Positions 1 to 3,000 of a stretch of 5,347 bases of DNA are shown one piece after another. The DNA lies in IMG/VR virus record IMGVR_UViG_2698536392_000005, positions 1-5,347 of that record, one strand, 5' to 3'. Origin of the DNA: a virus (lineage: Duplodnaviria > Heunggongvirae > Uroviricota > Caudoviricetes). Numbering within the stretch: the first letter of the stretch is position 1; the number at the start of each line of letters is the position of its first letter. The position numbers were made by a program.

Positions 1-3000
1 CAGCCGTACTGCCCTTTGCTCAGGTCTGCCTTCGGATGATTCAGCGTACTCCTATCCTGCACATCATGCAGGCAGTGGTCGGCCGGAATAATATCGTTAT
101 ATCTGCATGCAACCCCACCCGGCGTCACTGTACTGCGGCGCGCCAGCTGTTTAATGCGCGTATCCGGAGCATCATATGAATCCGGCAGCGGAAGCCCTTC
201 ACCGTAAGCCATGGCATTGGACTGCCCGGCCAGTACGATGACGTAGTACCAATCCGGCTCAGTTGCACCACTGACCACCACATCACCTTCTGCTGTAATC
301 GCCTGCATCAGGGTATAAGGGGTTATGGCCACCGGACTACCAAACGGCTGCCAGCCCTCTTTCAGTTTGTGTGTCAGCTTTTCCGCAAGGTCTGACGGCG
401 ACGCCGCCCTGACAACATCATAATGTTTAATCGACATCGAATTTCTCCCGTGTACAGGAACAGAGTTAAAAAGCCGGAACCGGAATCAAATCACAGGATG
501 ACCATCTGCCAGTGGCTGGTCGTAAAAAAAAGGCCGCGCCATGCGCAGCCGGAAATAAAGGGATAACGATGATAGTTTGAGAAAAACAGAAATAACACTT
601 TTGTGGCAAAGCATGGTGCCGGGTGCCTCCCGGTGAATTCAGCCGGTGTCACTGAACCCGCGTCGGCTTGCCTATAACATAATAAATGCTACCTACACCA
701 GTCGCCCCTCCGCACAGGGGGATTCACCATGCAGAAGTGTTTTTAATAAACAGCAAACAAAAAAATCAAGCATTATGCAGGCTGTTTCTTTTTATCACCG
801 GCCACAGCAATACCACAATGCCGCAGACCAGCACCCCATCCGCCAGCACCGACATGATTCTGCTGGTGAAATCCACCATCACCACCAGAAACAGCAGGAG
901 TGCAGCCACAGCCAGGCGCAGTTTTACCGTCACAGGTGATTCTCCAGACGAAGACCCAGAACACCGGCAATCTCTTCCAGCACCTTACACTCTTCCGGCT
1001 CAATTTCGCCTTCTGCCTCCGCAATGGCCACCGCCACATCCAGCACATCTTCCGCTTCACGCGTATCGTGTTTCACATCCTCGATCTCACGTAACGCCGC
1101 ACGACGACCAGTTTTAAAGTTCGTATCCAGCTGACCGATAATGGTTGCGCTCATCGCATTAATTTCTGACGTAAACGCGGACAGCGCTGGCTGATTACGC
1201 AGTACCTGTTCGATCTTCGCTTTCTCGGAAGCCTCACATTCACCATCTGCACAGGCCACCAGGTATGCGGCGTTAATCACCGCCTGTGCCAGATCGCGTT
1301 TTTCAAACTTTTTAATTTCCGTTGCCGCTCTGCGGGCTTTTTTTACCAAAAATACCAAACATCGTGACGTTCCTTTGGGTGGGTGAGCCAACGCCCGGGA
1401 GCGATCTGCCCACAGAGAAAGTCACACTGACCACTCCGTAAGCTCCCCCCGAAAGGCTCTGTGGTTGGTATGCGCCGGGCGTGGCGCGGATACAAAAAAG
1501 GTCCGCAAAAGCGAGCGAGGGAAAATAAGTGTGGTGCGTTGTACTGGGTTCGAACCAGTGACCGATTGCTTAGAAGGCTGGCGTTCTATCCCGATGAGCT
1601 AATGGCGGTTGGTGGCCCTTGCTGGATTTGAACCAGCGACCTGGCGATTATGAGTCGCTCGCTCTCACCACTGAGCTAAAGGGCCGGGCGCAGGATAATA
1701 ACGGTACGTAACTAATTCTGCAATATCATCCGTTCTGACTGACTAAATTCTGAACTTCCCTGACCGTCTGCTCAAAACGCCCGCTCTCCAGCTCAACGCC
1801 AATTGCACGACGCCCCAGCGACATTGCTGCTTTGACGCTACGGACATAAAAAAGCCAGCCACTGGGGGAGGCTGGCAAACTCGTAGAGCAAAATGCTGTT
1901 ACGCAAACTTCGTTACAGGGTCATCCTGCAATACAAAAAATACACAATATTTAGAAAACTAATAGTGCCATGTGCGATTTTTAAGATTTTGTTATTAATT
2001 GTGGTCGCACCTTCCTTTCTGTGTACTTTCCGTATAGCTCCCAGGATGCCGGATACAAAAAACCCGCTCGTCGACGGGCTTAAGCTACGTGGCAAAGCAC
2101 CCCCACTTCACATAATATTCAGTAATTAAATATTAAATCACTTATGGAGATCACGTTTTTATGGCGATAAAATGAACACTCCCGATTTCGAATGGAGTGA
2201 TTCATGATTATTATTAGAACAGAAAACGGCATCGAGAAACTTGATAACTGGGAAGAAATCACATCCAGACCAAACTTTGTTGCCAGTATAGATAAAGGAG
2301 AACAACAGTTTGAGGAAATAATTGGCTACTACAAATTTAAGGAAGAAGTCCACTGTGGCTTAACTGGCTGCAACCAACCACATCAAATGGGTTATATTGT
2401 AAAGACCTCTAGCGGCATTGAAACTAACATCGGCAATAAATGCGGCAAAAACGAATTCGGTGTGGAATTCGGCGAGAATGTTCTTAGCTTCAATAAACTA
2501 ATGCAACTCGAGACCAATCGAGAAATTATCAGAACAGCAAAAAATAAGCTCGAAGAATGGCAAAAAATCATTGAAAACATACGAAATACCAAACCCACCA
2601 TAGATTATTTATCTTCTACTATAGAAAATAGTAAAAACTATAACTACTCTGGCAGGCTTGGCGCAGCAGAAATACGCTTATTGGCAAAATCTCAAACCGG
2701 TATTGTAAGTCTATCAGAAGTTGAAACTGATAAGAAAACCAAAACAATTCTATTTGCAATGAATAAACACATGCGCGAATCTGGAGAAGCAACAAGTGAG
2801 TTCAACATGGGAAAGGTATCATTTATCCATGTGCTTTTACCAGAAAATAATCTTCGTAAGTTTTTTGTTGCGCTCAAAGAAGATCTAAAGAAAATTCAGG
2901 GCATTGATCTGCAAACAACCCCAAGCCCAGAAATTTCCAATGTTGCCCAAATCGCCAGTTCAATCGAAGAACGAATCATACGATTAAAAAACCTGAAACA

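Follow-up and report, generated by a model that had tools for sequence, protein, structure and literature searches.

The window analysed here, a 5,347-nucleotide stretch of a Caudoviricetes genome record, raises the question of whether a 55-codon ORF lying directly behind a TerB-domain gene encodes a protein, and what a small hydrophobic peptide in this position might do. The ORF is situated at 766–933 on the minus strand, with a GTG start and a TGA stop, and the ORF listing returned its 55-aa peptide exactly as quoted in the first-pass annotation. The start (933–931) overlaps the TGA stop of the TerB gene (932–930), together forming a 4-nt GTGA junction (930–933, minus strand), and a Shine-Dalgarno-like GGAG (942–945, minus strand) is found 8 nt before the GTG, within the TerB codons for Leu-Glu; the minus-strand sequence spanning the junction reads ...CTGGAGAATCACCTGTGACGG.... 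The overlap and the GGAG had both been proposed earlier and were borne out by the sequence; of the codons suggested to be host-like, CTG makes up 9/11 Leu codons and GTG occurs nine times when the start is included. Since the window contains 57 ORFs of at least 30 aa, an ORF of 55 codons is weak evidence taken alone; what places this one beyond chance is a match to the Pfam family DUF3927, a full-length match to PHROG 1470 and purifying selection specific to its frame.

The gene is not an overlooked one but is already catalogued as DUF3927, the family of TciB of phage P1, and is annotated in public E. coli genomes. The RefSeq CDS WP_000216636.1, a "DUF3927 family protein", is the identical gene, annotated at the same coordinates in NZ_CP027325.1, so the description of the ORF as unlisted is correct for the ORF track used in the first-pass annotation and not for RefSeq. 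A search against Pfam matched residues 3–51 to positions 2–50 of the 53 in the PF13064 (DUF3927) profile with 62.3 bits (E=4.3e-17), against a curated gathering threshold of 25, and PHROG 1470, "TciB-like", was matched over the full length (residues 1–54 of 54, E=4e-30), while tblastn with the peptide revealed P1 tciB, TciB of phage 434 and homologues in N4-like phages. Family alignments show that the peptide fits the DUF3927 pattern, stand-alone proteins of ~50–60 aa with a conserved D-F-[TS]-S ... D-G motif. The members fall into 116 representative clusters, essentially all of 50–60 aa, and are nearly confined to phages and prophages of Enterobacterales. When natural fusions of TciB with TerB or other domains were sought by a profile search over 1.84 billion representatives, the three longest matches inspected (P0129, P0170 and P0173; 119–176 aa) looked like chimeric or frameshifted gene calls. 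No functional study emerged from literature searches by family and gene name, locus tag, accession and peptide motif.

Amino acid conservation and synonymous-site bias were examined across relatives and both indicate a real coding gene. Eleven divergent copies were compared in 55 pairs, giving a pN/pS of 0.09–0.66 in the tciB frame and mostly about 0.6–2.7 in the other two frames. The peptide is retained from Enterobacterales prophages to P1 and the lytic N4-like phages even though synonymous changes have often reached saturation. Residues K4, D21, F22, L30, D32, L35, V36, P45 and K48 do not vary between E. coli prophages, P1 and the N4-like phages, and R6, D21, S28 and D32 are conserved in at least 90% of 33 diverse members. 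The weakest constraint was found for the 434-type copy (pN/pS 0.66 against the window copy), which may be a remnant. At short range constraint is not visible, since the near-identical E. coli copies differ by six non-synonymous and two synonymous variants. A spurious ORF is ruled out by the family matches together with purifying selection confined to this frame, and that 766–933 is a genuine tciB/DUF3927 gene is in our judgement practically certain. Of the 5426 complete E. coli genomes, 1555 contain the region carrying it, frequently more than once.

The upstream gene, here called tciA, is located at 930–1358 on the minus strand and encodes a TerB-domain protein of 142 aa from the TTG start given by RefSeq (WP_047087898.1). 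It matches Pfam PF05099 (E=1.1e-12), PHROG 632 (E=5e-65) and the TerB fold of PDB 2jxu (E=2e-6), and there is a weak match to DjlA (E=1.3e-4). Reading the sequence and comparing alleles revealed a homopolymer of seven A (A7) in the 5'end of tciA, at 1338–1344 on the minus strand. In the A6 allele an intact TerB of 143 aa is read from the ancestral ATG (1362–1360), while in the A7 allele the same ATG reads MFGIFGKK and meets a stop at 1312, leaving tciA of this window with only the TTG start, ~12 nt from a Shine-Dalgarno motif. Beyond the run the A7 allele is open. A sequencing error was ruled out as the source of A7, as Sakai and EDL933, both finished genomes, have the identical allele. In 12 IMG/VR loci, where A7 is joined by a nonsense codon, TerB is a clear pseudogene and tciB is open.

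A TerB-domain gene is found directly upstream of tciB in 91 of 93 loci, and likewise in the window. The spacing from stop to start is -4, -1 or 0 nt in all 89 scorable TerB-linked loci, the junction taking the forms GTGA, TGATG/TAATG and TAAATG and never showing a positive spacer, whereas of the GGAG site mostly GGA alone is kept in relatives. The pair is annotated in the same way in P1, Pollock and FSL SP-076. As pair and junction are kept across very distant phages, TerB and the small membrane peptide form a genuine and recurrent module, in agreement with the earlier view that such a pairing would be coherent. The junction very likely has the anatomy of coupled translation, which suggests that tciA and tciB may be translationally coupled, and because A7 shifts the ancestral ATG of tciA out of frame, coupling in the window may be weakened, with fewer ribosomes delivered to the tciB junction. 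The pairing is not universal, however; phage 434 and related E. coli prophages harbour tciB without any TerB gene. The sequence types of TerB and TciB are also shuffled among loci (their identity matrices correlate at Spearman 0.23), which disfavours a tightly co-evolving interface between the two proteins.

Hydropathy places two hydrophobic stretches in TciB, residues 5–20 (only 16 residues) and 26–47, separated by DFTSR, and the C-terminal tail opens with KR. This agrees with the two hydrophobic segments and basic C-terminal tail originally proposed, although both ends proved to be basic, the net charge being ~+1.5 per tail and ~0 in the loop. Hydropathy and charge distribution thus suggest a hairpin of two transmembrane segments, whereas AlphaFold2 run on the family alignment gave one continuous helix over residues 3–53 (pLDDT 90) with no turn or hairpin.

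When analysing the surroundings of the pair, a gene for the sRNA STnc100 (Rfam RF02076) was identified at 575–761 on the minus strand, matching the full-length model at 116.9 bits (gathering score, 47). It begins 5 nt past the tciB stop, a placement repeated in Sakai Sp12 and in IMG/VR loci, and STnc100 is a 3'-end neighbour of tciB in E. coli lambdoid prophages that lies outside the universal tciAB module. The tciA-tciB-STnc100 stretch is closed before the esterase gene by an intrinsic-terminator-like hairpin with a T8 run (532–550, minus strand), which is conserved in phage 434. The pair is located between Q/tRNA and the late genes, in a region flanked by the late antiterminator gene Q and associated tRNA genes on one side and by a nanS-p-type esterase gene on the other, the slot in which Shiga-toxin phages carry stx. 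No sigma-70-like promoter was found on the tciA-tciB strand of the window. Near tciB the esterase gene is frameshifted, a methyltransferase gene survives as a fragment, IS elements are present, and argN and argO are fused into a pseudo-tRNA.

The closest described relative is the pair of P1, where tciB (YP_006541.1) also lies directly behind a TerB-domain tciA with an overlapping stop and start. The two TciB proteins belong to the same HMM family, P1 TciB being ~50 aa, share the motif VDFTS...LSDG..LV..WP..K and are about 50% identical. The P1 gene differs in having an ATG start and a 1-nt overlap, compared to a GTG start and a 4-nt overlap in the window, and the P1 pair is situated in the C1-controlled ban operon while that of the window is downstream of Q. 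P1 also holds a third gene, tciC (35 aa, a single hydrophobic helix), which has no counterpart in the window; a 26-aa ORF at 693–773, overlapping the tciB stop by 8 nt, was considered and is unlike both P1 TciC and the 110-aa downstream gene of N4-like phages. In 434 a 62-aa "membrane protein" is annotated behind tciB and was also considered; its counterpart in the window is disrupted and shares a terminator-encoded C-terminus, and it was treated as non-coding.

The explanation we favour, with a probability of roughly 0.6, is that tciB is made together with tciA during lytic growth and that its product is a hairpin-shaped inner-membrane partner or anchor of TciA. Ribosomes ending tciA would re-initiate at the overlapping GTG, aided by the weak internal GGAG, so that both proteins would be made together. 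TciB would then enter the inner membrane as a helical hairpin with both basic ends in the cytoplasm and the polar cluster D21, S28 and D32 at the periplasmic end, and would hold or accompany the cytoplasmic TciA, a two-polypeptide version of the membrane-tethered TerB domain seen in DjlA. Expression probably falls in lytic growth, in the window from a Q-dependent late transcript, in P1 from the C1-repressed ban operon and in N4-like phages from the early region, and the pair would act on the host inner membrane. Taken by itself, the role of TciB as anchor or partner of TciA is a proposal to which we give slightly less than an even chance. In P1 the pair is dispensable for plaque formation, tciA, tciB and tciC all having scored as non-essential by CRISPRi.

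The literature on Bunzi, Shango, Dionysus and DjlA ties TerB domains to membranes, and each of these systems resembles the pair in part. DjlA of E. coli has a TerB-like domain that a short hydrophobic anchor holds to the inner membrane on its cytoplasmic side, but is a single polypeptide consisting of an N-terminal transmembrane helix, the TerB-like domain and a J domain, whereas in the window the putative anchor is a separate protein of 55 aa and a J domain is lacking; the likeness is architectural and does not extend to homology of TciB. In the terZABCDEF tellurite-resistance operon a TerB-domain protein likewise works beside an integral membrane protein, TerC, but TerC is large, multi-pass and unrelated to DUF3927, and neither annotation nor Pfam searches gave any terC, terD or terZ in the window. 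Dionysus (DinABC), Bunzi and Shango also combine a TerB domain with transmembrane partners, and "membrane surveillance" has been proposed for them in the studies concerned; these systems are chromosomal with larger transmembrane or pore-forming proteins, while tciA-tciB is phage-borne and occurs even in strictly lytic N4-like phages. None of TciB, TerB and the 306-aa neighbour matched a model of PADLOC-DB, which was searched for membership in anti-phage defence systems.

Among the alternatives, the one that survives best, though we consider it unlikely, is that TciB acts alone, modulating a transporter, a sensor kinase, a divisome component or another protein of the host inner membrane, and that TerB is a mere co-expressed neighbour. 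Small membrane proteins of this kind are known in bacteria, AcrZ, MgtS and MgrB being examples. The existence of tciB without TerB in phage 434, its open frame where TerB is a pseudogene and the free recombination of TerB and TciB types all suit such a role, and the conserved intramembrane Asp and Ser residues would be suited to contact with a partner helix. The position of TerB immediately upstream with an overlapping junction in 91/93 loci, comprising P1, N4-like and lambdoid phages, is nevertheless hard to explain without a shared function, and the 434-type copy, as the least constrained one, speaks less for independence if it is a remnant.

That TciB instead damages the membrane, depolarising or permeabilising it in the manner of a holin, pinholin, viroporin or type I toxin, had been put forward in the first-pass annotation as a toxic or holin-like alternative and now appears improbable. 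The resemblance to class II holins and pinholins, small N-in/C-in phage proteins with two transmembrane segments, extends to size, two hydrophobic segments, a basic C-terminal tail and phage origin; TciB is furthermore very hydrophobic (GRAVY 1.43) with a charged C-terminal tail, its gene precedes the lysis cassette in some prophages and, were the protein to oligomerise, its conserved Asp residues could face the lumen of a pore. However, the family searches gave DUF3927 only and none of the holin or toxin families, no endolysin gene adjoins tciB in the window (where the neighbours are TerB, the sRNA and the esterase), in P1 or in N4-like phages, and distinct holin-like and lysozyme genes are found downstream in related prophages (L006, L010). 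No Rfam antisense family lies opposite tciB, STnc100 being downstream and in the same orientation, and a single E. coli genome can tolerate as many as 13 matching places.

Equally improbable is that the window copy is an unexpressed relic of a real family, in which a frameshifted TerB gene and a decaying prophage around it would leave TciB not made in useful amounts. The disruption of the ancestral TerB start by A7, the nonsense codon added in sister loci, the nearby damage to the esterase and methyltransferase genes, with the IS elements and the argN/argO pseudo-tRNA, and the near-neutral appearance of short-range variation fit this idea, but the ORF, the GGAG and the start of tciB are undamaged and do not differ among 47 of 93 loci, the window included, the A7 allele of tciA is still called as a gene by RefSeq, and in EDL933 the region is transcribed, at least across the adjacent STnc100 copies.

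Returning to TciB as a partner of TciA, a more far-reaching and clearly tentative suggestion is that the two form a dedicated inner-membrane device of the lytic phase, common to lambdoid, P1-like and lytic N4-like phages, which may guard or re-programme the host membrane and of which TciB would be the membrane-embedded half. Such a device might exclude the DNA of superinfecting phages, counter the TerB-based "membrane surveillance" defences of the host or hold the membrane potential until the holin is triggered.

As tciB has already been catalogued, the locus adds no new element, and the module is very common in E. coli. That TerB and a membrane protein of 50 aa are found paired again and again, in temperate phages as well as in strictly lytic ones, suggests a need that phages generally have at the inner membrane of the host. 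Anti-phage systems with TerB domains are also coming to light, and a small two-gene phage module could be a tractable model for the role of TerB domains at membranes.

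The open reading frame tciB occupies positions 766..933 on the minus strand of the window and encodes, from a GTG start, a peptide of 55 amino acids, MTVKLRLAVAALLLFLVVMVDFTSRIMSVLADGVLVCGIVVLLWPVIKRNSLHNA. In the junction to the TerB-domain gene tciA, CTGGAGAATCACCTGTGACGG on the minus strand, the TerB stop codon TGA (932-930) overlaps the tciB start GTG (933-931) as GTGA, with a GGAG (945-942) located 8 nt upstream of the GTG, while CTG makes up 9 of the 11 leucine codons and GTG occurs nine times, start included. When compared with the ORF listing and the sequence, the position, peptide, overlap, GGAG and CTG/GTG codons described in the first-pass annotation were right throughout. 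Since the window holds 57 ORFs of at least 30 aa, a 55-codon ORF is by itself unremarkable and the case must rest on comparative evidence.

The gene is already known as DUF3927/TciB and annotated in RefSeq. A megablast search with positions 440-1500 against complete E. coli genomes (n = 5426) placed the region in 1555 of them, at a median of 2 and a maximum of 13 places per genome. One of the matches, in strain 2013C-4830, is 100% identical, and there RefSeq annotates exactly the tciB ORF as WP_000216636.1, "DUF3927 family protein", with WP_047087898.1, "tellurite resistance TerB family protein", directly upstream. The peptide matches Pfam PF13064 DUF3927 (62.3 bits, cut-off 25, E = 4.3e-17) and, over its full length, PHROG 1470 (E = 4e-30), labelled [quoted passage not shown]; NCBIfam and PADLOC have no model for it. 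In prophage Sp12 of O157:H7 Sakai the matching pair is ECs_2265 ("TciA/TerB-like protein") and ECs_5733. The name comes from phage P1, where tciA (TerB-like), tciB and tciC are situated in the C1-controlled ban operon adjoining a tRNA-Ile(CAT) gene. The P1 annotation marks their function as "by homology", all three scored non-essential for P1 in a CRISPRi screen, and a literature search found no study testing TciB or DUF3927 function.

The family was found by tblastn in 29 phage records (P1-like phages, 434, temperate phages of Klebsiella and E. coli, and lytic N4-like Schitoviridae such as Pollock and FSL SP-076), in a one-genome-per-species scan in prophage-like regions of Pseudescherichia, Rosenbergiella, Enterobacter, Pantoea and E. 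albertii, and in at least 445 confirmed IMG/VR loci. An ungapped alignment of 11 divergent copies (48 codons, 55 pairwise comparisons) gave pN/pS values of 0.09-0.66 in the annotated frame, where synonymous differences are often saturated, and mostly ~0.6-2.7 in the other two frames of the same DNA. No variation was seen at K4, D21, F22, L30, D32, L35, V36, P45 and K48 from E. coli prophages through P1 to N4-like phages, and R6, D21, S28 and D32 are conserved to at least 90% in 33 more diverse members. In relatives the ATG or GTG start aligns with that of the window or follows it by one codon, and the conserved K4 and R6 speak for the GTG as the genuine start. Near-identical E. coli copies show 6 non-synonymous and 2 synonymous variants, so that constraint is invisible at short range. 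Searching 1.84 billion representative proteins with a profile returned only 116 clusters, essentially all stand-alone proteins of 50-60 aa; the three longest hits were inspected and look like chimeric gene calls. Judged by this conservation from prophages to N4-like phages, tciB is truly coding, as had been claimed.

A TerB gene lies directly upstream of tciB in 91 of 93 loci, all but phage 434 and one degraded copy in E. albertii, and in every one of the 89 scorable loci the tciB start overlaps or adjoins the TerB stop, which bears out the earlier description of a TerB and small-membrane-peptide gene pair. The junction is GTGA in 84 loci, the window included, TGATG or TAATG in three (P1, Rosenbergiella, Pantoea) and TAAATG in both N4-like phages, an arrangement kept despite surrounding DNA saturated with changes. 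Most relatives have a weak Shine-Dalgarno element, with just GGA. The layout of the junction is typical of termination-reinitiation coupling, under which TciB synthesis would depend on translation of TciA.

In the window this coupling may be reduced by an A7 run in tciA. The ancestral TerB N-terminus, M-[FL]-G-[IL]-[FL]-x-KK-ARR, is found in P1, N4-like phages and other prophages, and the A6 allele gives an intact protein of 143 aa. From the ATG at 1362-1360 the window reads MFGIFGKK, goes out of frame at A7 (1338-1344, minus strand) and stops at 1312 after 16 codons; for this allele RefSeq calls a TTG start at 1358 (1358-1356; MVFLVKKARR...). A sequencing error was rejected, as ~70% of the 774 records that matched contain the identical 111 bp, the finished genomes of Sakai and EDL933 among them. 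Among IMG/VR loci, 14 carry A6, nine carry A7 with the TerB frame otherwise open, 12 carry A7 plus a nonsense codon (TerB a true pseudogene, tciB still open) and in one an A8 run is offset by a compensating shift. The TerB gene seems to be in decay in some of the population, unless the TTG start or slippage along the A run restores it. The tciB of the window may rely on its own GGAG. A further length-variable homopolymer, a poly-G tract in the tciA leader (1445-1450, minus strand) ~85 nt upstream of the start, measures G6 in the window and G13 in Sakai Sp12.

The window is the late-regulatory region of a lambdoid prophage, with Ant/KilAC, DUF1364 and RusA followed on the minus strand by antiterminator Q (3240-4070), tRNA-Ile(CAT) (1610-1685; labelled Met by ARAGORN and Ile by RefSeq), tciA, tciB, the sRNA STnc100, a terminator (550-532) and a DUF1737/SASA esterase gene. 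Shiga-toxin phages have stx in the slot that tciAB occupies here; other Enterobacterales carry the pair between Q on one side and the holin and lysozyme genes on the other. The minus strand showed no sigma-70-like promoter from the tRNA to tciA, which together with the repressor-controlled ban operon of P1 and the early-region location in lytic N4-like phages suggests that tciAB is expressed during lytic growth. Two further features were observed here. At ~1532-1608 (minus strand) a ~90-bp deletion relative to the ileZ-argN-argO cluster of Sakai Sp12 has fused the argN 5' half to the argO 3' half, a hybrid pseudo-tRNA called by neither ARAGORN nor Rfam, leaving the CAT tRNA at 1610-1685 as the only intact one. 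Between Q and the tRNA, on the opposite strand, an AT-rich (35-39% GC) ORF of 306 aa (2204-3124, plus strand) matches PHROG 7003 (unknown function) only, with nothing in Pfam or PADLOC; with promoter-like sites upstream and a hairpin downstream (~3126-3148) it looks like an independently acquired moron.

STnc100 (Rfam RF02076; 575-761, minus strand) is a full-length match of 116.9 bits against a gathering score of 47, starting 5 nt past the tciB stop, and its -10 box may be the CATAAT (777-772, minus strand) within the final codons of tciB. This placement is shared with Sakai Sp12 and several IMG/VR loci and is absent in P1, N4-like phages and most other genera; STnc100 copies are abundantly transcribed in EDL933 (PMC5331693). 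The slot gathers several prophage sRNAs: in one IMG/VR prophage locus (L017) the anti-GcvB sRNA AgvB (RF02702, 96.5 bits; 3364-3425, minus strand) immediately follows STnc100. In phage Pollock (L004) a group I intron (RF00028, 101 bits; 3055-3407, plus strand) lies ~450 nt downstream of tciAB. A 26-aa ATG ORF (693-773, minus strand) overlaps the tciB stop by 8 nt, as does the gene following tciB in N4-like phages, but resembles neither that gene nor P1 tciC; it falls within the STnc100 match and is probably non-coding.

TciB is strongly hydrophobic (GRAVY 1.43), with stretches at residues 5-20 and 26-47 separated by DFTSR, and family-wide net charges of ~+1.5 in each tail and ~0 in the loop, a pattern that fits an N-in/C-in hairpin. 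The sequences examined have V, I or M at position 20, which, given the site preferences of signal peptidase I, argues against a cleavable signal peptide. The two hydrophobic segments and basic tail of the first-pass annotation were recovered, but AlphaFold2 (33-sequence alignment) predicts one helix over residues 3-53 (pLDDT 90) with no turn, and as the first segment has only 16 residues a two-TM hairpin is likely but unproven.

TerB domains are repeatedly tied to membranes in the literature: DjlA has a TerB-like domain tethered by a TM helix, and TerB occurs alongside TM proteins in the defence systems Bunzi, Shango and Dionysus, for which the authors of those studies suggest "membrane surveillance". 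The TerB of the window matches the TerB fold of PDB 2jxu (E = 2e-6) and, weakly, DjlA. On the simplest interpretation TciB would be made together with TciA and serve as its membrane partner or anchor, as the TM helix does in DjlA. Against a tight complex count the shuffling of TerB and TciB types between loci (Spearman 0.23 between identity matrices; Pantoea and the window share 87% identity in TerB and only 52% in TciB) and the persistence of tciB in some phages that lack a functional TerB. That TciB is a small protein acting on its own to modulate a host membrane protein is an unlikely competing reading. The toxic or holin-like peptide offered earlier as an alternative fared worse, and a pore, holin or toxin is improbable: no such family matches the peptide, no endolysin adjoins tciB, separate holins exist elsewhere and no antisense RNA family of Rfam was found on the opposite strand. 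Equally doubtful is a silent relic in this decaying prophage. Already catalogued, tciB is not a new element; its value lies in the functional question around the pair of TerB and a small membrane protein.
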